A stretch of DNA of 49,649 nt from Anaerolineae bacterium. GTDB taxonomy: Bacteria > Chloroflexota > Anaerolineae > B4-G1. The stretch spans positions 1-49,649 of the forward strand of contig JAFGED010000202.1 in NCBI GenBank assembly GCA_016931785.1, given 5' to 3'. The translations under genes were made by a program, and so were the position numbers. Under the pieces are notes generated by a model. The model ran no database searches, had not been told where the DNA came from, and saw only the letters and a list, made by a program, of their open reading frames with translations. The stretch's first letter is position 1, and each line of letters opens with the position of its first letter. Shown piece by piece: positions 6,909 to 49,649 of this stretch.

Positions 6909-6922
6909 GCCACAATGGTTTG

Positions 6923-7015
6923 AATCCCCCGCTTGGCGACAATCCCTTGGATCGCGCCTCACCCCCGCCGCAATTGCCAACCGCTTCGCGTTTGGACGCT
7001 CTCCGGCTTTTCCCC
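6923..7015 (-). mobile_element. IS200/IS605-like mini-element, left-end-only copy D
   Basis: Minus strand TTTAT|GGGGAAAAGCCGGAGAGCGTCCAAACGCGAAGCGGTTGGCAAT...AAGCGGGGGATT, collinear with the left part of copy C (26702-26929); no right-end hairpin. Confidence 0.7.
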
Positions 7016-7016
7016 A

Positions 7017-7053
7017 TAAAAAGAACAAGACCCCGCGATGCGGGGTCTTGTTC
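7017..7053 (-). terminator. Intrinsic terminator downstream of the Flp pilin gene
   Basis: gaacaagaccccgc-gat-gcggggtcttgttc 14-bp stem followed by a T-run on the minus strand. Confidence 0.85.
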
Positions 7054-9424: not shown

Positions 9425-9551
9425 GTGAAGATCCCCGGCGCTTTGCGCCGGGGATCTTCCTAAGGGAAAAGCCCTTGGGGACCGCCGCCCCAAAATCCCC
9501 CGCTTTGCCATTCACCCCCACCACAAGCAGTGGGGTTTCTAGCTTTTCCCC
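9425..9551 (-). mobile_element. IS200/IS605-like mini-element, copy A (127 bp, intergenic)
   Basis: Minus strand TTGAT|GGGGAAAAGC..hairpin..GTGAATGGC...GGAAGATCCCCGGCGCAAAGCGCCGGGGATCTTCAC; the target pentamer contains the stop codon of the upstream gene. Confidence 0.8.
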
Positions 9552-9552
9552 A

Positions 9553-11232
9553 TCAAGGCCAACAAGGCCGATCTTGCTCGACTAGATCAGCCACGTAGGC
9601 CAACACGGCCTCTGTTTCTCCCTCAGCAGGTTCTCCCCGCTCAAGCAGTAGAATGCGCCCAGCCCAGTACCGCACACGAAAGTCGCCAGTGCCCATAATC
9701 TGTGTAACGATCTCCCCGTAGCTTGCGCGCGGGTCTGGAGCCGGGACGACCCTGCAATCCACCAAGTCAAATAACACATAGTCCACCATCTCCAGGTGAT
9801 CCAGCCGAAGCGGGGCAGGATACTCCAAAGCCACCAACACGCGGCGGTCAGCGAGTTGCGGCCCCAAGCGATTGACCGTGGCGACACCTGCATCGGGAGG
9901 AATCTGCGCCAGCGCCTCCGCAATCTGATCGTGGTGGGGTTCAGGCTGGAACATCCCCTCTCGAGCGTAGAGACAGATCGGGTTGAGGGCAATGTTGATA
10001 CCCAGCGTACCAAACACCATAAACGCAAGCCCCAAACGGTAGAGGCGGAGTCTGCCAGGGCGATGCAGTCGCCGCAAACCCTCAGACACCGCCAAGAAAA
10101 ACCAGGGGATCAGCACCGCAGGGTACTGGTAACCGACAGAGTGGAACGCCGGGCGCTCCCCCAGCAAGAGATAGGCCAGTGAAGGCAACGCCACTAGAAA
10201 GGAAGTGAAGCTCCCCGGCGCTTTGCGCCGGGACTTCCTAAGGGAAAAGCCCTCGGGGGCTGCCGCCCCCAAATCTCTCGCCTTGCCATTCACCCCCACC
10301 TCTTGCGGTGGGGTTCTCTGGCTTTTCCCCGTAGACCCCAGAAAAGGAAGAAATCCCAAGGGTAGAAACAGGTGAATCAAGTAGAGGGCAATCGTCTCAA
10401 AAGACGCGCTTCCTATGGGCTGCGCGGTTCCTCCTTGATCAGAGCTTACTCCTCCCAACAGCTTGATCCATAGCTGCCAGAAGCGATACGGCTGCCCCTC
10501 GTTGAAGGTGGGGATAATCAAGCCAAAACACAAAATCGCCCAGACTCCAGCCAGGATCACGAGCCCCAGTCCAACCCGCCGTCTCTTTCCCCACAAAAGA
10601 TTGACCACTCCCCACACTGCTATGGGGATCACCAACTCCTCCTTGACAGACAGGGCCAGCAACACGGCAACCCAGAAAAGGGCCGTTCGCTCTTCATGCA
10701 AAGCCCAATAAGCCAAAAGTATCAGAGGGACGGAAAAAGCGACAGGATGAAAATCCACCAGGTTGAGAAAGCCCAACGCAGGATAGGCCAGATAGCAACA
10801 AGAGACGATGAACGCCGCCCACGCATCCCCCGTCTGCTTGTGGACGACACAATAGAGCGGGAAAGCCGCCAGACCGAGAGCCACGCTCTGCAGGATGAGC
10901 AGCAAACGCGGATCCGGCCACACCCGATAGAGGGGCGCCAAGAAAAGCAGGATCGGGCGAACGTGGTTGCCCAAATAGCTGCCGATGAGCCCTGCGTTTG
11001 TCGCCCGATCTATGGAGGTCTCGAACCAGCGCCCGTGGGCCGTGTTCCAGGTCACCTGGGCCATGATGCCCAGGTCGAAAGTTGAGGAATAGAAATTGTT
11101 GTGCCTGACGACAGACAGCGCGCTGAAAGCAACCACATAAACCAGAATCAGCGGCAAAAGCAAGAGCCAAACTCGAGCTTTATGGCGAAACACAGCACCC
11201 CTTTGCGATGAATCTACTAACCACAAAACCAT
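9553..11232 (-). CDS. DUF2079-like GT-C membrane protein carrying a 42-aa in-frame element insertion
   Basis: TFDLGIMAQVTWNT, GNHVRPIL, DFHPV, KEE; paralog of 32941..34473; start uncertain. Confidence 0.85.
   Translation of the reverse strand: MVLWLVDSSQRGAVFRHKARVWLLLLPLILVYVVAFSALSVVRHNNFYSSTFDLGIMAQVTWNTAHGRWFETSIDRATNAGLIGSYLGNHVRPILLFLAPLYRVWPDPRLLLILQSVALGLAAFPLYCVVHKQTGDAWAAFIVSCCYLAYPALGFLNLVDFHPVAFSVPLILLAYWALHEERTALFWVAVLLALSVKEELVIPIAVWGVVNLLWGKRRRVGLGLVILAGVWAILCFGLIIPTFNEGQPYRFWQLWIKLLGGVSSDQGGTAQPIGSASFETIALYLIHLFLPLGFLPFLGSTGKSQRTPPQEVGVNGKARDLGAAAPEGFSLRKSRRKAPGSFTSFLVALPSLAYLLLGERPAFHSVGYQYPAVLIPWFFLAVSEGLRRLHRPGRLRLYRLGLAFMVFGTLGINIALNPICLYAREGMFQPEPHHDQIAEALAQIPPDAGVATVNRLGPQLADRRVLVALEYPAPLRLDHLEMVDYVLFDLVDCRVVPAPDPRASYGEIVTQIMGTGDFRVRYWAGRILLLERGEPAEGETEAVLAYVADLVEQDRPCWP
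10205..10330 (-). mobile_element. IS200/IS605-like mini-element, copy B (126 bp), in frame within a CDS
   Basis: TCTAC|GGGGAAAAGC...GAGCTTCAC; removing it restores gap-free alignment with the paralog. Confidence 0.88.
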
Positions 11233-25008: not shown

Positions 25009-26958
25009 TCAAGGCTCCCTCGGCACGTAATCGGCGATCACCAAGGGCGGTATGGTAGGCACCCTGGATACCGTCCCGGCTTCCACCTGCCAACCTGCAG
25101 AGATGCTTCTCACCAGCGGCGTCTCCTGATCGGCCAGCCGGGCCACTCGCACGCGCCCCACACCCTGCGCGGCCAGCCGCTCGTCCAACGCGCTCCATTC
25201 GTCCGGCGTGCGCACGACGAGGAACGGCACCTCGCCGTACACCTCCGGCGCGATCTGCGGCACGAACCAGAGATCGGTGACGACGACGGTCCTATCAGGC
25301 GCGCGAAGCAGCGTGCGCGCGAGCACGTCGTTCCCGGCACGGACGTGCCACAGCTTCATCACGCCCACCGCCTGTACCGCCGCTCCGGCCAGCAACAGCG
25401 TCACTAACGCCCCGCGCACCGCGTACCGCTCCATCGAGGAACGCGCGCCCCGTTCCAGACGATCCCAGCGCTCGACGGCCAACAGCACGAGCGGCCCCAG
25501 TAGCGGCGTCAAATAGCGCGGTCCCCACTGCCACCCGCCGGACTGGCGGCCCAGCACGACCGATAATACCACGACCCACACACACCAAACTGCCAGCTGC
25601 CGCCGCCAACGGCCCCGGGTCGCTACGCTCTCGGCTCGCTCTCCGAATCTCAAAAACGCCAGGCAGGCCACCGGCGCTCCGAACAACAGGTCAATCGGGT
25701 GGTAGCCGCGCGACACCAACACCACCGCGCCCACAGCCACCAGCACGAGGCCGAGACATTCGACCGTCGAACCCAATCGCCCGGCCAGGGCCGGACGCAG
25801 CCTGCGATAGGCATACGCCATCCCGAAAACCGCCAGCCCGCCGGCCAGGATCACCAGCACGCCCAGCTGCCGGCTCTCCACGACCATCTGGCTCATCTCG
25901 AACAAACGCCTGAACGACCACACGCGGGTCTCAAAAGCCGATGGGGCAAAGTTCATCGCGGCCTGGCCGCCGATCGCTTGGCCCACGACGGCGGCCTGAT
26001 ACGCCCAGCCTACCAGGCCTGCCAGGCCCAGTCCGGCCGTCACCCAACCCAGCGCCGGCCACATCGAACGCCGCACGACCAGCACGGCCAGCAAGGCCAA
26101 CACAGAAGTACCCGCCTCCGGACGGGTCGCCACCGCCGCTCCCAGGCACAACCCCGCCGCGATCCCCGACAGGACCCGCGACTGGCGCATGTCTGGAATC
26201 ACCAGCGTCAACGCCCCCCAGATCAGCACGCTGGCGAGCGTGTGCCCCCAAAACGTCACACTGTAAAACAGCCACGACGAGGCCAGTCCCAGCGCCAGCA
26301 CGACGAAAAAGGCGACCCGTCCAGAAAACCGGCGGCCCACCCAAGCCGCCAGGGCCAGCCCCCCCACCCCCGCGATCAGCGGCGGGGCGTAGAGCGCTGG
26401 CAGTCCCCCAGCCGACAGCAACAGGCTGGACAGAAATATGTAGGGCAGCGTATAGATCGTGAGAACGCGATCTCCCTCCCACACGGCAAAGGGCGCGCCC
26501 AGCGGGGCCAGAGCGTGATCCGGATCGAGGACGGCATTGGCCCCGGCGTAGGAAGCCCAGGGCGTGCGCCAGCCGTTGGCGATCCAGGCCTCCATCTGCC
26601 ACAGCTTGACGCCGGCATCTCCGCTCCAAAAGCCGCGACAGGGCGACAGCGCCAGCACGATCCCCACGTACAGCGCGCCAACGATCACGACCAGCACCCA
26701 CGTGAAGCTCCCCGGCGCAAAGCGCCGGGGCTTCCGGGAAGACTCCCCTTCGGGGAGCTTCCTAAGGGAAGAAGCCTGTGCGAGCTTCGCTCGCGCGGGG
26801 GCGGCCGCCCCCAAATCCCCCGCTTTACGGCAATCCTGCGGATTACGGCAATCCAAGGGATTGCACCTCATCCCCACCGCAATGCGATTGCCAACCGCAA
26901 AGCGGTTGGACGCTTTCTGGCTTTTCCCCGTCAAGCGCAGGAGATTTTCACGGTTCAT
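25009..26958 (-). CDS. GT-C-type membrane protein with a 76-aa in-frame element insertion near the N-terminus
   Basis: Start MNRENLL at an ATGA overlap; FWSGDAGVK, FWGH, TRPE, QWGPRYL. Confidence 0.75.
   Translation of the reverse strand: MNRENLLRLTGKSQKASNRFAVGNRIAVGMRCNPLDCRNPQDCRKAGDLGAAAPARAKLAQASSLRKLPEGESSRKPRRFAPGSFTWVLVVIVGALYVGIVLALSPCRGFWSGDAGVKLWQMEAWIANGWRTPWASYAGANAVLDPDHALAPLGAPFAVWEGDRVLTIYTLPYIFLSSLLLSAGGLPALYAPPLIAGVGGLALAAWVGRRFSGRVAFFVVLALGLASSWLFYSVTFWGHTLASVLIWGALTLVIPDMRQSRVLSGIAAGLCLGAAVATRPEAGTSVLALLAVLVVRRSMWPALGWVTAGLGLAGLVGWAYQAAVVGQAIGGQAAMNFAPSAFETRVWSFRRLFEMSQMVVESRQLGVLVILAGGLAVFGMAYAYRRLRPALAGRLGSTVECLGLVLVAVGAVVLVSRGYHPIDLLFGAPVACLAFLRFGERAESVATRGRWRRQLAVWCVWVVVLSVVLGRQSGGWQWGPRYLTPLLGPLVLLAVERWDRLERGARSSMERYAVRGALVTLLLAGAAVQAVGVMKLWHVRAGNDVLARTLLRAPDRTVVVTDLWFVPQIAPEVYGEVPFLVVRTPDEWSALDERLAAQGVGRVRVARLADQETPLVRSISAGWQVEAGTVSRVPTIPPLVIADYVPREP
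26702..26929 (-). mobile_element. IS200/IS605-like mini-element, copy C (228 bp), in frame within a CDS
   Basis: TTGAC|GGGGAAAAGC...GGAAGCCCCGGCGCTTTGCGCCGGGGAGCTTCAC with additional internal hairpins. Confidence 0.85.
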
Positions 26959-28169
26959 CGTTCGACCACGAGCCAGCGCCGCGCTAACACAAAGACAGCC
27001 AGCAGCCCAAAAGGCAGCGGCAGGTAGACGGACGGGTGCTCGAACTTGCCCTGCAACGTGGTCAGGAACAGCACCCACAGCCCCACCAGCAGCGCGACCT
27101 CGATCAGCAAAATCCACCACACGCCGACGCGCCTGCGTTGGAGGGCGCGAAACACCATCGCCAGGGGCAGGAGCAGGATCACGTAATTCGTCGTCGCGGT
27201 GCGCACCGCCACCAGGTTGGTGACGACCAGGCACAATCCCACCGCCCAGTCGAACCAGTTTGACTTGCCCTGTCGCAGCGCCCACCAGGACGCCCAAACC
27301 AGGCCGGCGACGGCCAGGCCGGAGAGCGCCCACTCACCCCAGGTCCCCAGGAACGGGAACGGGATGTGCGTTATGATCCACATCGGAGAGCCGATGGCCG
27401 TGTAGCTCGTGTAACGGCCCACCTGGCCCAAAAAGGCGCCAAGCCACCCCGGCTCGACGACCCACGAAGCCCCCAAAAACAATATCATCCAGCCCGCGGA
27501 ACTCGCCACAAAGCGCCAGCGCCGCTCACGCACTGCCCACCAAAGCAGCAAGGGGATGAGCAAAAAGATCATCTGCGGCTTGAAGGTGGAGAGTGCCATG
27601 CAGAACCCGGCCAGGACGTCCCTTTCCTCTTTCAGCGCCCACAGGGCCAGCGCGACCACGGCAAAGACAAAGATCGCAAACTGCCCCAGCAGCAGCGCGC
27701 GGGCGTGCGGGTAAAAGACAAACACCCAGACCGCCGTGCCGAGCAGCAGCCAACGCGGCGGCCGCCAATCGTAAAGACGCAGCGCCAGCAGCAGCCCTGC
27801 CAGCAGGCAGACCTCCAGCACCACCAGCCAGATCGCCTCCGCCCACGGGTACGGCATCCAGACGATCGGAAAGAGAAGAAACACGGTGTAGAACGGGTAC
27901 GCGAAAGGCCCGGGGTCGAACTCCTGCTCCTCCTCCGGCGGGATCGGGCGGCCGTAGATGAGCATCTGGATCTGGCGCGTCGCCTCGTCAGAGTAGGGGC
28001 TAACGCCATCGACCCAAAAGGCCCGCGCGCCGGCCCAGCGGGAGGCAAAGTCGTTAGCGCCAGGATAGCGGGAGGTGAAAAAGTGATAGGTCGCCACCAC
28101 GTCGGCGGCCAGCAGCAACACCACCAGGAACAGCAAAATCAAACGGCCTGAAAGCGAACGCGCGAACAC
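26955..28169 (-). CDS. GT87/DUF2029-like membrane glycosyltransferase
   Basis: ANDFASRW.GAR, FAYP, GQF, FKPQ. Confidence 0.82.
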   Translation of the reverse strand: MFARSLSGRLILLFLVVLLLAADVVATYHFFTSRYPGANDFASRWAGARAFWVDGVSPYSDEATRQIQMLIYGRPIPPEEEQEFDPGPFAYPFYTVFLLFPIVWMPYPWAEAIWLVVLEVCLLAGLLLALRLYDWRPPRWLLLGTAVWVFVFYPHARALLLGQFAIFVFAVVALALWALKEERDVLAGFCMALSTFKPQMIFLLIPLLLWWAVRERRWRFVASSAGWMILFLGASWVVEPGWLGAFLGQVGRYTSYTAIGSPMWIITHIPFPFLGTWGEWALSGLAVAGLVWASWWALRQGKSNWFDWAVGLCLVVTNLVAVRTATTNYVILLLPLAMVFRALQRRRVGVWWILLIEVALLVGLWVLFLTTLQGKFEHPSVYLPLPFGLLAVFVLARRWLVVER

Positions 28170-31439: not shown

Positions 31440-32953
31440 TCGCCGTCTACCTCCCGTAAGTCACACAGCAAGAGACTCACACCATACCACACTCTCGCAT
31501 CCTCGCAGTCGTAGCTCCTCGCGGCCCGTTCCACGATCCCGCGATGGCGCTCGGCAAGCTCCTGCGACATCTGCACGTCGGCGGTGACGAGCCACAACCG
31601 CTCCCGCCCGGCGATGGCCTCGTCGAGTGACTGGATCCGCTGCCCGGCCCAATCCCACGTATAGGGTGGCAGCCAGATTTCTGGGTCATTGTTCAGCAAA
31701 TAGCTCTCCGCCCCCGGCGCATAGTAGCGCAGCGGCAAGTAGGTGCTATCGTGCAGATGAAAGAGAACGTCCCCCTCCCGCCAGCCCTCCCGCACCCCCC
31801 CGCCAACCTCGCGAAACGGCGGCTTGGCCGGGTCGGGGTTGAGATAATAGTTCCCAAGCGAGATCGCTATCAAGACCGCCAGAACCCCGTAAAGAACCCG
31901 CACCGGAGAGCCCTTGGGCGGATGCGCCAATCCCCATCCCAGCAGCAGCACGTAAGCCGGCGCGACCAGGCTGAAGGAACGGTCCAGGTAAACGGGCTTG
32001 GCCAGCCAGGAGATCACCAGAGCGATCAAGTTTGGAGCCAGCACCAACGCCAGCAGCAAAAGCGCCCGCTGGCGCGCCTCGCCACGGGCGCGGACGCCAG
32101 CCCAAGCCACGAGTGTGATGATGGACAAAGCCATGAAAAGCGCCACCGGATTCAGGAACACGGGCGTCGTATGGCTAAAGAGCAGATAAACCAGCGTCTT
32201 GACGAGTTCCAGCGGGGAGGGCGTGGAGAGCCAAAAGCCGGTCGCCACCTGCTGAGTTTGCGCCAGCGCCGATGGCGCGTGCGGCCCCCACAACACCAGG
32301 GCCACCCCATCGGCCAGGAGCAGGCCCCACCAATAACGCCGGTCTTGCGGCCATTTCAGCAAAACAAAGGCGTGGAGCACCAGCAGCGTGAACGCGGTAA
32401 AATAGTGCGCGCAAAGATTCAGGGCGAACAGAAAACCCAGCACGACCCAGCGCCACCCACTCGCCTTCTCGCAAGCGCGGGCGAACCCCCACAGCAGCAA
32501 CGCCGATAGCAAGATGACGAGCGCGTACAATCGGGTCTCCTGGGCAAAGTAAACCTGGAAGGGCAGCACGGCCGTCAGCAGCGCGGCAGCCAGCCCGGTG
32601 GCGGGGGTAAACAGCTCGCGGCCGAGCGCGTATATCACAGGAACGGTCAGCAGCCCACACAGCGCCGAAAAGCCGCGCAGCACCGTTTCACTCTCGCCCA
32701 ACCGAATCCAGAAATGAAGCAGAAAGTGATAAAGCGGGGGTAGAATTGGCTCCAGCCGCTGGGCGAGAATAGCCCAGGCCGGTTGCCGCGCCACCAGCCA
32801 ACTGAATGCCTCGTCGGCCCACAGGCTGCTGGCGCCGATGTGAAGCAGGCGCAGGACGCAAGCCAACACCAGAACCGCCAGCAGCCAGACCGGGCTTTCC
32901 ACACGCGGGAGACGGCCCAGAAGAGAACGCAGACGAGAGCTTACGGCCAGCAC
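31436..32953 (-). CDS. GT39/PMT-like membrane glycosyltransferase
   Basis: SLWADEA, PPLYH, QETRLY, AHYF; related to 17704..19158 and 23480..24988. Confidence 0.85.
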   Translation of the reverse strand: MLAVSSRLRSLLGRLPRVESPVWLLAVLVLACVLRLLHIGASSLWADEAFSWLVARQPAWAILAQRLEPILPPLYHFLLHFWIRLGESETVLRGFSALCGLLTVPVIYALGRELFTPATGLAAALLTAVLPFQVYFAQETRLYALVILLSALLLWGFARACEKASGWRWVVLGFLFALNLCAHYFTAFTLLVLHAFVLLKWPQDRRYWWGLLLADGVALVLWGPHAPSALAQTQQVATGFWLSTPSPLELVKTLVYLLFSHTTPVFLNPVALFMALSIITLVAWAGVRARGEARQRALLLLALVLAPNLIALVISWLAKPVYLDRSFSLVAPAYVLLLGWGLAHPPKGSPVRVLYGVLAVLIAISLGNYYLNPDPAKPPFREVGGGVREGWREGDVLFHLHDSTYLPLRYYAPGAESYLLNNDPEIWLPPYTWDWAGQRIQSLDEAIAGRERLWLVTADVQMSQELAERHRGIVERAARSYDCEDARVWYGVSLLLCDLREVDGE

Positions 32954-34473
32954 GGTCGCCCTTCCTCCACCAGGTCGTCCACATAGGCCCGCACCTCGTC
33001 CACCTCTTCCCCTGGCGGAAGGCCGCGTTCCAAAAGAAGGATGCGATCAGACCAATAGCGCACGCCAAAATCCCGCGTGTCGAGAATCTCGTATGTCATT
33101 CGCCCATAGTCGCCTCTCGGGTCCTGCGTGTGAAACAGGCGACAATCCACCAGGTCCAACAAGACATAGTCCACTTCGGCCATGTGGTCCATATTCAAGC
33201 CGGTCGTGTATTTTTCAAGGCCAATCAAGCAGCGCCGATTGGCCAGGTGAGGTCCAAAAGGATTGACGGTGGCGACACCGGCCCGGGGAGGGATCAGCGC
33301 CATCGCCGCTTCGATCTGCTCGTGCTGAGGCATGTGCATAAAGTAACCGCTCAGCCAACTGGTTCGGACCGGGTTAAAGGGCAAGTTTGCGCCCAATGTC
33401 CCTATCAACAGCAAACTTACAGGCAGCCACTTTTTCAAATCGTGCCGCAGCCGCAAGCGTCTTTCCAGCCTGGACAATCCCTGGATGGTGGCTAGGAACA
33501 GCCAGGGAATCAACACGGCAGGATATTGAAAACCGACTTGGTGCAAAGCAGCTCGGTCGCTCAAAAGCAAATATGCAAACGAAGGCCAAGACACGGCGAA
33601 TAATTCGGGCCCGAACAGAGGCAAAAACCCCAAGGGTATTAAGAGATGGGCAACAAAGTAGGCCGAGTCAACGGAAAACAAAGCCCCTCCAGAGCCCCCA
33701 CCACTACTCCCCAATTCTCCCAAAAACGGCAACCGAGACCATAGATCAAAGAAACGATAGGCGCGTCCTTCGTTGGCAGCGGGGATGATCACGATGAAAC
33801 AAAGAAACGCCCAGGCGATGGCCGTTCCCAGCAACCACACCCCTCTCCTGCGCCACGCTGAAAAGAACAGACAATAAACACCAAAGGCTGCTACAGGAAC
33901 GACCAACTCCTCCTTGGTCGATAGGGTAAGCAAGATCATCGCCCAGAAGAGAATCTTACGCTCTTCCAACAAAGCCCAATAGGCAAAAAGCAATGCAGGG
34001 ACACAAAAAGCCACGGGGTGAAAATCAAACAGGTTGATAAAGCCCAAGGCCGGATACAACAAATACACAATAACCAGGACGTAATGCAAAATAGGGCGCT
34101 TTAAATTTCGCCGTGCAATCCAGTACAACGGTACAGCCCCCACTGCCAGCACAATCGATTGCATGCTCAACAACACGCGAGGGTCGGGCCACAGCCGGTA
34201 CAGCGGCGCCAGAAAGAGCAGCAGGGGCCGCACGTGATTGCCCATATAGCTGCCGATCAGTTCTGTATCCATCGCTCGATCCAGCGACGTCTCAAACAGC
34301 CGCCCATGTGCCGTATTCCAGGTGACCTGGGTCATGATGCCCAGATCGAGCGTAAAAGAATGAAAGTTGTCATGCTTGACTATCGACAAAGTCGCATATG
34401 TCGCCACGTAAACCAACATCAGCACACAGAGCCATATCGGCACAGCCTTACTCAGCTTCGGAACGAACGTCAT
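32941..34473 (-). CDS. DUF2079-like GT-C membrane protein
   Basis: TLDLGIMTQVTWNT, GNHVRPL, DFHPV, KEE; ends RPCWP like 9553..11232. Confidence 0.85.
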   Translation of the reverse strand: MTFVPKLSKAVPIWLCVLMLVYVATYATLSIVKHDNFHSFTLDLGIMTQVTWNTAHGRLFETSLDRAMDTELIGSYMGNHVRPLLLFLAPLYRLWPDPRVLLSMQSIVLAVGAVPLYWIARRNLKRPILHYVLVIVYLLYPALGFINLFDFHPVAFCVPALLFAYWALLEERKILFWAMILLTLSTKEELVVPVAAFGVYCLFFSAWRRRGVWLLGTAIAWAFLCFIVIIPAANEGRAYRFFDLWSRLPFLGELGSSGGGSGGALFSVDSAYFVAHLLIPLGFLPLFGPELFAVSWPSFAYLLLSDRAALHQVGFQYPAVLIPWLFLATIQGLSRLERRLRLRHDLKKWLPVSLLLIGTLGANLPFNPVRTSWLSGYFMHMPQHEQIEAAMALIPPRAGVATVNPFGPHLANRRCLIGLEKYTTGLNMDHMAEVDYVLLDLVDCRLFHTQDPRGDYGRMTYEILDTRDFGVRYWSDRILLLERGLPPGEEVDEVRAYVDDLVEEGRPCWP

Positions 34474-49548: not shown

Positions 49549-49562
49549 TGAGTTCCTCAAAC

Positions 49563-49649
49563 GTAACTACTCAGGCTATTCGCCTGAGCAGTCTCCCTCG
49601 CTCGAAAAGGGGAGAGATGGGGGGTTTGGAGAGCGGCTTCGCCGCTCTC
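49563..49649. mobile_element. Second copy of the GTAACTACTCAG MITE, truncated by the window end
   Basis: gtaactactcaggctattcgcctgagcagtctccctcgctcgaaaagggg...gagagcggcttcgccgctctc is collinear with 2120-2206. Confidence 0.88.

Follow-up and report, generated by a model that had tools for sequence, protein, structure and literature searches.

The open reading frame of a membrane protein in an uncultured member of the Anaerolineae carries, ten codons from its start, a 228-nt chain of hairpins, and the locus raises the question of how such a sequence came to lie inside a gene without breaking it and where the host protein now begins. The window referred to below is the whole stretch of DNA that was analysed, 49,649 nt long, and the features at the locus are as follows.

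26955 to 28169, minus strand: upstream gene of the GT87 family, whose TGA overlaps the ATG of the host gene
26930 to 26958, minus strand: 5' remnant of the host gene, from the ATG at 26958-26956 through the AC of Thr10, with an N-terminus matching homologues P0002-P0004
26702 to 26929, minus strand: copy C, a hairpin-chain repeat of 228 nt, or 76 codons in the host frame
26891 to 26909, minus strand: 5' proximal palindrome CCAACCGC-TTT-GCGGTTGG, 20 nt from the start of copy C
26827 to 26864, minus strand: tandem duplicated hairpin unit of copy C, NPLDCR / NPQDCR in the host frame
26710 to 26730, minus strand: 3' near-terminal palindrome CCCCGGCGC-TTT-GCGCCGGGG, 8 nt from the end of copy C (AGCTTCAC)
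26695 to 26697, minus strand: alternative in-frame GTG start, six bases past copy C, with GGGGAG in the last hairpin arm 10 nt upstream
25009 to 26701, minus strand: remainder of the host gene, encoding a GT-C-fold membrane glycosyltransferase-like protein without a Pfam match

Read on the minus strand, copy C begins GGGGAAAAGCCAG and ends GCGCCGGGGAGCTTCAC. It lies between codons 10 and 11 of the host gene, producing the open reading frame MNRENLLRLT[76 aa]WVLVVIVG, and its own translation in that frame (GKSQKASNRF...RRFAPGSFT) is stop-free. A sequence-only reading of the window had described a 228-nt in-frame copy beginning GKSQ and ending APGSFT like a second copy, B; sequence and translation confirm this. 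The short internal duplication that it reported (NPLDCR/NPQDCR) is real, with units at 26864-26845 and 26844-26827, and among 16 aligned copies both units are present only in copy C and in a 227-nt copy on contig C101. As single-stranded DNA copy C folds at -70.6 kcal/mol (z = -6.65), and none of 200 shuffles was equally stable. Its open frame is by itself unremarkable: about 21% of dinucleotide shuffles are open in the given frame, and three of the six frames of copy C are open.

That copy C is an insertion is documented by empty sites. Two related metagenome contigs (L018 and L019) read ...TTGAC|GTGGG... uninterrupted and keep the ATGA overlap; the difference from the window at this site is exactly 228 nt, and target duplication is absent. 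A contig of a relative about 92% identical also skips copy C, and was the only empty-site contig in the search of sequencing runs. The run in which the locus is best represented gave contigs that end within the repeat, neither crossing copy C nor skipping it, although contigs cannot show rare alleles; runs with a small share of the locus words gave matches to the repeat itself only. A DNA search of five related genomes for the orthologous locus matched the repeat and not its flanks. At the protein level, none of 12 homologues has the insert, and the three closest begin MKRGNLLRLTW, MNRETLLRLTW, and MNRRNLLHFTW. Removal of copy C had been proposed to give a normal N-terminus, and the result indeed matches the homologues and L018/L019 and restores the ATGA-coupled start. 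The proposal that the Thr codon is kept on either side also holds, through an AC ambiguity at both junctions. These comparisons support the view that copy C lies within ancestral coding sequence and that the gene originally started at the upstream ATG.

Two starts are available to the interrupted gene. Translation from the conserved, translationally coupled ATG, yielding a 649-aa protein, is the most likely outcome, and we lean modestly toward it. The host ATG (26958-26956) overlaps the TGA (26957-26955) that closes the upstream gene. Because this arrangement is undamaged and is kept in relatives, ribosomes that finish the upstream gene should still initiate anew at the ATG, and the 76 codons of the insert hold no stop. 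An account that remains credible, while falling somewhat short of probable, is that the insertion displaced the start to the GTG at 26697-26695, giving a 562-aa product and leaving the element as a structured 5' leader between two genes, so that the insert-bearing protein would be irrelevant. The public gene call at the locus (P0001, 562 aa, MLVVIVG...) starts at this GTG downstream of copy C, the GGGGAG stands 10 nt before it, the annotation of homologue P0008 likewise begins at the equivalent Val, and a stable hairpin chain 30 nt past the ATG could impede elongation. The 562-aa form, however, loses everything before the first membrane helix, including both arginines of the homologues, and three other copies of the family occupy sites, mid-gene or 29 codons before the stop, where read-through is unavoidable. 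One 178-nt contig, from an RNA library of the same study, matches 26816-26993 exactly and runs from the 5' part of copy C across the ATG into the end of the upstream gene, although RNA libraries can contain DNA. Gene callers may misplace starts at such insertions, here with 562 aa called versus 573-aa orthologs and a 649-aa open frame.

For the 649-aa protein, the best matches of the fold model were ArnT (5ezm, E 1.5e-6), ALG12, ALG9, and AglB. Residues 1-9 and 11-80 have pLDDT below 50, partly because the alignment has no homologous rows at the insert, while the remainder adopts the GT-C fold. The fold model was used for placing the insert, as crude hydropathy topology was too coarse. In the 649-aa form, the short cytoplasmic N-terminal tail is predicted to gain 76 disordered residues, with a net charge of +11, before the first membrane helix.

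Copy C belongs to a family dispersed through the metagenome-assembled genome (MAG), which was surveyed as 481 contigs at 90% completeness, many of them ending inside the repeat. A search with nhmmer gave 77 hits, with 31 full copies of 124-228 nt and about 20 further copies cut off at contig ends. Three other members lie in the window.

10205 to 10330, minus strand: copy B, 126 nt, reading GKSQ...APGSFT in the host frame midway through the DUF2079 gene (9553-11232)
9425 to 9551, minus strand: copy A, 127 nt, intergenic, following a TTGAT that contains the TGA stop of gene 9553-11232
6922 to 7015, minus strand: partial copy, 5' half only (profile positions 1-72)

The repeat is a chain of short GC-rich triloop hairpins, up to about nine, with a modular core; entire hairpin modules occur in some copies and are missing from others. 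The loop of the 3' near-terminal palindrome is TTT in 10 copies, AAA in eight, and TCT in two, and hairpin loops flip among copies between a sequence and its reverse complement. These flips, together with the freely varying module content, point to constraint at the DNA level rather than the RNA level. The ends are fixed and unlike (GGGGAAAAGCC and GAGCTTCAC), making the repeat a directional unit. No terminal inverted repeats were found, with 9 of 30 end-anchored identities and a local alignment score reached by 382 of 1000 shuffles. The near-terminal palindromes are asymmetrically spaced, with 20 nt between the 5' one and its end of the element and 8 nt at the 3' side. The element is immediately preceded by a pentamer with the consensus TTTAY (positions -5 to -1 in 31 copies: T 23/31, T 23/31, T 24/31, A 30/31, Y 31/31), which at copy C is TTGAC, ending at 26930. 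The 3' end of copy C, TTCAC, is a look-alike of this target. Most copies are extragenic and adjoin gene ends; copy A starts one base past the stop of the DUF2079 gene. Of 13 copies whose right-hand neighbour is a minus-strand gene, 12 have the stop of that gene (TGA or TAA) at positions 2-4 of the reverse-complemented element end. A full-text literature search, with subscription journals outside its coverage, found no description of such elements in Chloroflexota. The repeat is a previously undescribed family of uncultured Anaerolineae that resembles the palindrome-associated transposable elements (PATEs).

Copy C probably inserted recently, as a PATE-type mobile repeat that is non-autonomous and lacks a transposase; at 124-228 nt, the copies are too short for a transposase gene. 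Such a repeat would move as single-stranded DNA through a Y1 (HUH) transposase of the TnpA type supplied in trans. It inserts without target duplication directly 3' of a TTTAY-like pentamer, here TTGAC. Mimicry of the target by the element end rebuilds the interrupted Thr codon (ACN) on both sides, and at intergenic sites it likewise rebuilds the stop codon of convergent genes. Copy C landed 30 nt into the glycosyltransferase gene, which stays open because the insert measures 228 nt and is free of stops in the reading frame of the gene. A transposase with matching ends was not found in the MAG; Y1_Tnp matches on C111, C173, C445, and C52 and a TnpB-type match on C316 had no element terminus adjoining. 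With the MAG 90% complete and in 481 contigs, this does not establish absence of the enzyme. IS608-style guide/target pairing was sought by eye in the element ends and dropped when LE and RE guides could not be assigned, so the placement in IS200/IS605 is one of anatomy.

In REP/BIME systems, the REP units have a conserved GTAG-type head and flank their own RAYT (REP-associated tyrosine transposase) gene. It is unlikely that the element is instead a REP/BIME-type mosaic repeat spread by a RAYT rather than by an IS200/IS605 TnpA. Its short palindromes, variable module content, and mostly extragenic position adjoining gene ends are in keeping with this origin, and a RAYT-like Y1 gene is present on C445. 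That gene, however, is flanked by a different repeat (GTAGGGCAGGT... units), and the element differs from REP doublets in being directional, in its constant but dissimilar ends, in the fixed target pentamer on its 5' side, and in having a GTAG head at neither end.

Four copies are intragenic: B, C, a 126-nt copy on C58 (7008-7133), and one split over C154/C389 with an inferred length of 126 nt. All four were checked against homologues without the insert; the site of copy B, for example, is contiguous in the ortholog G007:C257 and in the window paralogue at 32944-34440. Every one of them is read in the sense direction and in one and the same frame. Each of the three complete copies has a length divisible by three, and three of the four interrupted genes encode membrane glycosyltransferase-like proteins. 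The sequence-only reading implied that genic copies elsewhere would not show random lengths modulo three; tabulated across the genome, they do not, the C58 and C154/C389 copies conforming as well. The 28 intergenic copies, so classified by a codon-usage model and ORF maps, without a gene caller or homology, divide 10/8/10 by length modulo three. Under a target-weighted model, about 20% of random coding insertions would be frame-keeping and stop-free, and 38% of those would be in sense frame 1, so that four of four gives p of about 0.02. The frame specificity of the intragenic copies is only marginal.

Selection for frame-preserving insertion had been proposed from the window. The part of this proposal concerning pattern stands, in that genic copies are co-oriented and share a frame while intergenic ones show no bias, but the pattern also fits purifying selection on random insertions: intragenic copies would all preserve the frame because disruptive ones were lost. 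Frame-keeping thus fits survivorship of tolerable insertions, not a device. It is quite improbable that the family was selected for residence in one frame and that precise excision switches host proteins between long and short forms, as a phase-variation device for envelope glycosyltransferases. Besides the shared frame and the recurrent host type, such a device could draw on TnpA-type excision, which is scarless according to a published account (PMC10055086). However, the intragenic copies are few (n = 4), only 18 of the 31 full copies are open in frame 1, and the intergenic copies are free of modulo-three bias. Frame 1 is also not special in composition, as all open frames encode similar basic, hydrophilic peptides rich in G, P, and S; peptide composition was considered as the reason for frame 1 and rejected, antisense open frames being equally basic and hydrophilic. 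The suggestion that precise excision toggles the protein found no support: the empty-site contig came only from the relative about 92% identical, none came from the run in which the locus is best represented (where contigs cannot exclude rare alleles), and the cognate transposase was not found in the MAG. A more elaborate version, which we regard as a long shot, goes beyond survivorship: the family would have evolved to be codon-neutral, its 3' end copying its own target and so rebuilding split codons and stops, frame 1 would serve as a tolerated basic linker, and TnpA-type cycles of scarless excision and re-insertion would extend, reversibly, the cytoplasmic tails and loops of GT-C glycosyltransferases of the envelope, forming a transposon-driven switch of protein length. 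It is most improbable that the element is an RNA, whether a structured RNA gene or a cis-regulatory one, or that it is a common MITE derived from a DDE transposon. The very stable fold and a weak Rfam match speak for an RNA, but module content varies freely and loops flip to their reverse complement. The Rfam match, the sole one (HgcC, 20 bits, E 0.023), falls far below the gathering score of 50 and was treated as chance on GC-rich hairpins, and the terminal inverted repeats and target duplication of a MITE are both absent.

In summary, copy C is a clear new example of an already known kind of event. A PATE-like family enters coding sequence without breaking genes, and an element end that mimics the target, rebuilding split codons and stops, explains how such repeats can adjoin genes precisely at their ends, or lie within them, without costing the host much. 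With this locus, envelope glycosyltransferases of a bacterium join the cases of the route known from Rickettsia palindromic elements (RPEs), in which proteins acquire disordered segments from selfish DNA.

Among known systems, PATEs provide the closest anatomical parallel. In their first description, from Haloquadratum walsbyi, they are gene-less IS200/IS605 derivatives with no inverted terminal repeats, no target duplication, a 4-6 bp target, and a 5' palindrome farther from the end (PMC3119063). A second source also notes PATEs for Geobacillus ISGst and describes TnpA transposition as free of duplication, target-adjacent, and scarless, excision included (PMC10055086). The Anaerolineae repeat is alike in lacking terminal inverted repeats and target duplication, in its near-end palindromes with the 5' one farther in, in its short fixed target directly 5', and in being too short for a transposase, present in dozens of copies, and heterogeneous in its core. 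It differs in that an IS200/IS605 element with the same ends was not found in the MAG, in the unusually long core, where as many as about nine triloop hairpins follow one another and individual modules may be missing, in a 3' end (TTCAC) that mimics TTTAY closely enough to rebuild split codons and stops, and in its host, an uncultured member of the Anaerolineae (Chloroflexota).

REP/BIME-RAYT systems, the subject of PMC3337134, share a mosaic of short GC-rich palindromes, a location mostly at gene ends, and a Y1/HUH enzyme as suspected mover. The present repeat, in contrast, is directional, with distinct ends, a fixed target, and no GTAG head at either end. RPEs, reportedly the subject of work by Ogata and colleagues in 2000, offer the functional parallel. 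They too are small palindromic repeats, of about 100-150 bp, lying in frame in unrelated coding genes with a peptide tolerated by the host protein. Nearly half of RPEs are intragenic, according to a review (PMC10969869), versus four of about 50 copies here, and the insertion chemistry inferred here, with no duplication and a fixed 5' target, does not define RPEs. The designation RPE-like describes a functional class and not a homology family, and a sequence relation is not expected; in keeping with that class, the four intragenic copies maintain the frame, contain no stops, and extend the host protein by a peptide where such an addition is tolerated.

The genome from which the window derives, a metagenome-assembled genome of 4.81 Mb in 481 contigs (62% G+C, 90% complete; the window is its contig C172), carries the following hairpin repeat ten codons into a coding sequence:

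26929 to 26702, minus strand: copy C, 228 nt, sequence GGGGAAAAGCCAG...GCGCCGGGGAGCTTCAC

The host open frame begins at an ATG (26958-26956) that shares bases with the TGA of an upstream GT87-family gene, and it reads MNRENLLRLT, then 76 residues (GKSQKASNRF...PRRFAPGSFT), then WVLVVIVGALYVG.... As single-stranded DNA, copy C folds up as a row of short stem-loops rich in G+C (-70.6 kcal/mol, z = -6.65), a stability equaled by none of 200 shuffles.

Comparison with relatives shows that copy C is an insertion into ancestral coding sequence. Apart from the product of the window itself, the protein collection yielded 12 full-length homologues and 2 remote ones; the genomes of relatives reached in this way are labeled as Anaerolineae or Thermoflexales assemblies. 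The 76-residue insert is present in none of the 12 aligned homologues, residues precede the first membrane helix in 11 of the 12, and the closest three (86, 82, and 78% identity in the alignment) start MKRGNLLRLTW, MNRETLLRLTW, and MNRRNLLHFTW. Two related metagenome contigs, L018 and L019, have empty sites (...CGCTTGAC/GTGGGT... and ...CGTTTGAC/GTGGGC...) and retain the overlapping ATGA; relative to them, the window has exactly 228 nt more, with no duplication of the target. The proposal that removal of the copy gives a normal N-terminus is borne out by the homologues and by both uninterrupted contigs. The only ambiguity at the copy C junction is an AC dinucleotide, the last two bases being the same in the target (TTGAC) and in the element end (TTCAC). 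The element is also skipped in a 2153-nt contig of a different study, with flanks about 92% identical to the window.

The host protein has no Pfam match. Its AlphaFold model (mean pLDDT 67.7, from an alignment of 13 rows) resembles GT-C glycosyltransferases, with ArnT (5ezm; E 1.5e-6, TM 0.40/0.46) as the best fold match, followed by ALG12, ALG9, and AglB. The insert is predicted to be disordered, with pLDDT below 50 at residues 1-9 and 11-80, a stretch with no homologous rows in the alignment. It lies ahead of the first membrane helix and carries 16 K+R and 5 D+E residues. Since the N-terminus is cytoplasmic in solved GT-C enzymes, a basic extension, if made, should be tolerated there. Both the ancestral ATG and the coupling to the upstream stop have been preserved, and 26816-26993 is spanned by an exactly matching 178-nt contig from an RNA library, a kind of library that can contain DNA; this library belongs to the study that gave the best-matching DNA run. 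In the collection, the gene is called from a GTG (26697-26695) that lies six bases beyond the element and has GGGGAG 10 nt before it. The homologue P0008 (559 aa) is annotated from a valine equivalent to this GTG and so has no N-terminal tail; a similar disruption or a mis-called start might be present on its contig.

A family profile built from 16 copies gave 77 matches in the genome, of which 31 are full length (124-228 nt) and about 20 more are truncated at contig ends; the remainder are fragments, including window 6922-7015. This last, a 5'-half fragment, is directly followed downstream of a gene end by a terminator-like hairpin (7027-7053; GACCCCGC-GATG-CGGGGTC plus a T-rich tail). Copies differ from one another by entire hairpin modules. 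The longest are copy C and a 227-nt copy on contig C101, and the internal duplication noticed in copy C in the sequence-only reading is real, a duplicated hairpin unit being found in both. Among copies, loops of 3 and 2 nt occur either as one sequence or as the reverse complement of it, on unchanged stems: the terminal-hairpin loop is TTT in ten copies, AAA in eight, and TCT in two (e.g., window 26710-26730 versus 10213-10233), while that of another hairpin is TTC in five and GAA in two. These flips look like hairpin inversion via template switching. Several loops form GCGAAGC-type mini-hairpins.

The family is nearly private to this genome, with element matches in 31 places here and in one or two places in 4 of 40 relatives. 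Allowing one mismatch, the 17-nt 3' end of the element occurs 37 times in this genome and zero to two times in each of 400 others of the same class (23 genomes matched, against 12 for the reversed control pattern); among the places listed, matches outside the genome always had the one mismatch. Far commoner is another repeat, unrelated to this one, of about 111 nt and centered on a perfect 32-bp hairpin; it occurs in the window at 2119-2229 and, at the contig end, at 49562-49649, and BLAST gives 399 matching pieces on 219 of the 481 contigs.

The pentamer to the left of the 31 full copies is T (23/31), T (23/31), T (24/31), A (30/31), Y (31/31), and the 3' end is TTCAC or TTTAC in nearly all copies. 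Terminal inverted repeats are absent (9 of 30 end-anchored identities, and a local score matched by 382 of 1000 shuffles); the outermost palindromes are set 20 nt inside the 5' end and 8 nt inside the 3' end. Palindrome-associated transposable elements (PATEs), gene-less derivatives of IS200/IS605 transposons, are defined in their description by the lack of inverted terminal repeats and of target duplication, with near-terminal palindromes farther from the 5' than from the 3' end, a 5' targeting sequence of 4-6 bp, and a length into which a transposase would not fit (PMC3119063). The family is like them in its ends, palindrome asymmetry, 5' target, lack of duplication, and size. TnpA is described as inserting downstream of a transposon-adjacent motif without duplication and excising scarlessly (PMC10055086), and the family's target position and seamless insertion fit this mechanism. 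Because of these shared features, the element is taken to be PATE-like and to derive from an IS200/IS605-type transposon; it would be mobilized by a TnpA-type enzyme. The genome has four Y1_Tnp matches and one TnpB-type match:

C173:9220-10456: IS605-type tnpA (140 aa), then a tnpB-like frame to the contig end; about 3 kb from a 208-nt family copy (C173:5976-6183)
C111: IS200-like tnpA, a Y1_Tnp match
C445:1449-2042: RAYT-like Y1 transposase gene, flanked by its own, different repeats
Fourth Y1_Tnp match: a fragment
C316: the one TnpB-type match

Family termini are absent beside all five loci in this 90% complete assembly, and the region upstream of the C173 tnpA has no similarity to the repeat's ends. 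In the 300 nt upstream of the RAYT-like gene, its own repeat occurs twice; this repeat is about 100 nt long, starts GTAGGGCAGGT, and is unrelated to the family of copy C.

Toggling between protein forms by precise excision, as had been suggested, is mechanistically possible, because TnpA-type enzymes excise scarlessly (PMC10055086). It is unsupported here: in the best-matching run, which contains 89% of the locus's sampled words, contigs break in the repeat and none joins across the site, contigs being prone to drop rare variants; the sole empty-site contig is from a diverged relative, and no matching transposase was found in the genome.

The element's end mimics its target. On the opposite strand TTTAY reads RTAAA, with a stop codon inside, and the element end reads GTGAA. 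The right flank is best read on the minus strand in 13 copies, and in 12 of these the minus-strand gene ends with a TGA or TAA formed by bases 2-4 of the element end in reverse complement (two of the 12 with short or contig-limited frames). The element therefore tends to enter convergent genes at their stop codon, which it replaces with one of its own. By the same mimicry, the Thr codon (ACN) is rebuilt on either side of copies B (10205-10330, in a DUF2079 gene) and C, as the sequence-only reading had it. The intergenic copy A (9425-9551) follows TTGAT, which contains the TGA of the DUF2079 gene.

Location was called with a custom classifier, a codon-usage log-odds model (1286 long training ORFs) combined with ORF maps rather than a gene caller, and 3 of the 31 full copies are genic: copy C, copy B, and the following.

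C58:7008-7133: 126-nt copy, 29 codons ahead of the stop of a secreted beta-helix protein, reading ...WYTITIT/GKSQ...VSFT/ATGGVTQTV...

The copy B site is contiguous in an ortholog (G007:C257) and in a window paralogue (32944-34440), both of which lack residues 301-343, and the C58 site is uninterrupted in four homologous C-terminal domains of other genomes. A fourth genic copy is split by the assembly: a PMT_2-like gene enters the element (...RKERKGFM/GKSQ...) and its contig, C154, ends after 59 nt, while C389 opens with the element's last 66 nt and continues into the matching C-terminal domain (...APGSFT/SSRPPTF...). Of 8 relatives searched, 4 have the two halves matching adjacent parts of a single open frame; the copy would be 126 nt long if of the common short form. 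All four intragenic copies are co-oriented with their hosts and read in the GKSQ...SFT frame (sense frame 1), and all three complete ones are multiples of three in length; the lengths of the remaining 28 copies, modulo 3, divide 10, 8, and 10.

Peptide composition is ruled out as the reason for frame 1, because the peptides from all open frames are similarly basic and rich in G, P, and S. Selection for frame-preserving insertions, proposed earlier, accords with genic copies that are all in frame, but the loss of disruptive insertions accounts for them. Stops are scarce in the GC-rich hairpins: of 31 copies, 8 are open in sense frame 0, 18 in sense frame 1, and 10 in sense frame 2, while antisense frames 0 and 2 are open in 18 and 19. 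Copy C is open in three of its six frames, and its dinucleotide shuffles are open in any given sense frame about 21% of the time. In a model weighting all coding positions by the target matrix of the 28 intergenic copies, a family member inserted at random into coding sequence keeps the frame and is stop-free in about 20% of cases, and 38% of those are in sense frame 1, so that the chance of frame 1 in four of four is about 0.02 (about 0.05 for three of three). We attribute the multiples of three to the loss of disruptive insertions and regard the common reading frame as suggestive at most.

A full-text literature search returned nothing relevant on such elements in Chloroflexi or Anaerolineae among the 10 matches listed out of 156. 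In a 2024 review (PMC10969869), small palindromic repeats in frame within genes are described for the Rickettsia palindromic elements, and intragenic ERIC elements are named among ORF-carrying MITEs; in-frame genic residence is shared by the Rickettsia elements and the present family. Since PATEs and in-frame palindromic repeats are already known, this is a known kind of element, and the repeat family itself is new; its long modular hairpin chain with flipping loops is worth recording, as is an element end that mimics the target, so that codons and stop codons are rebuilt.
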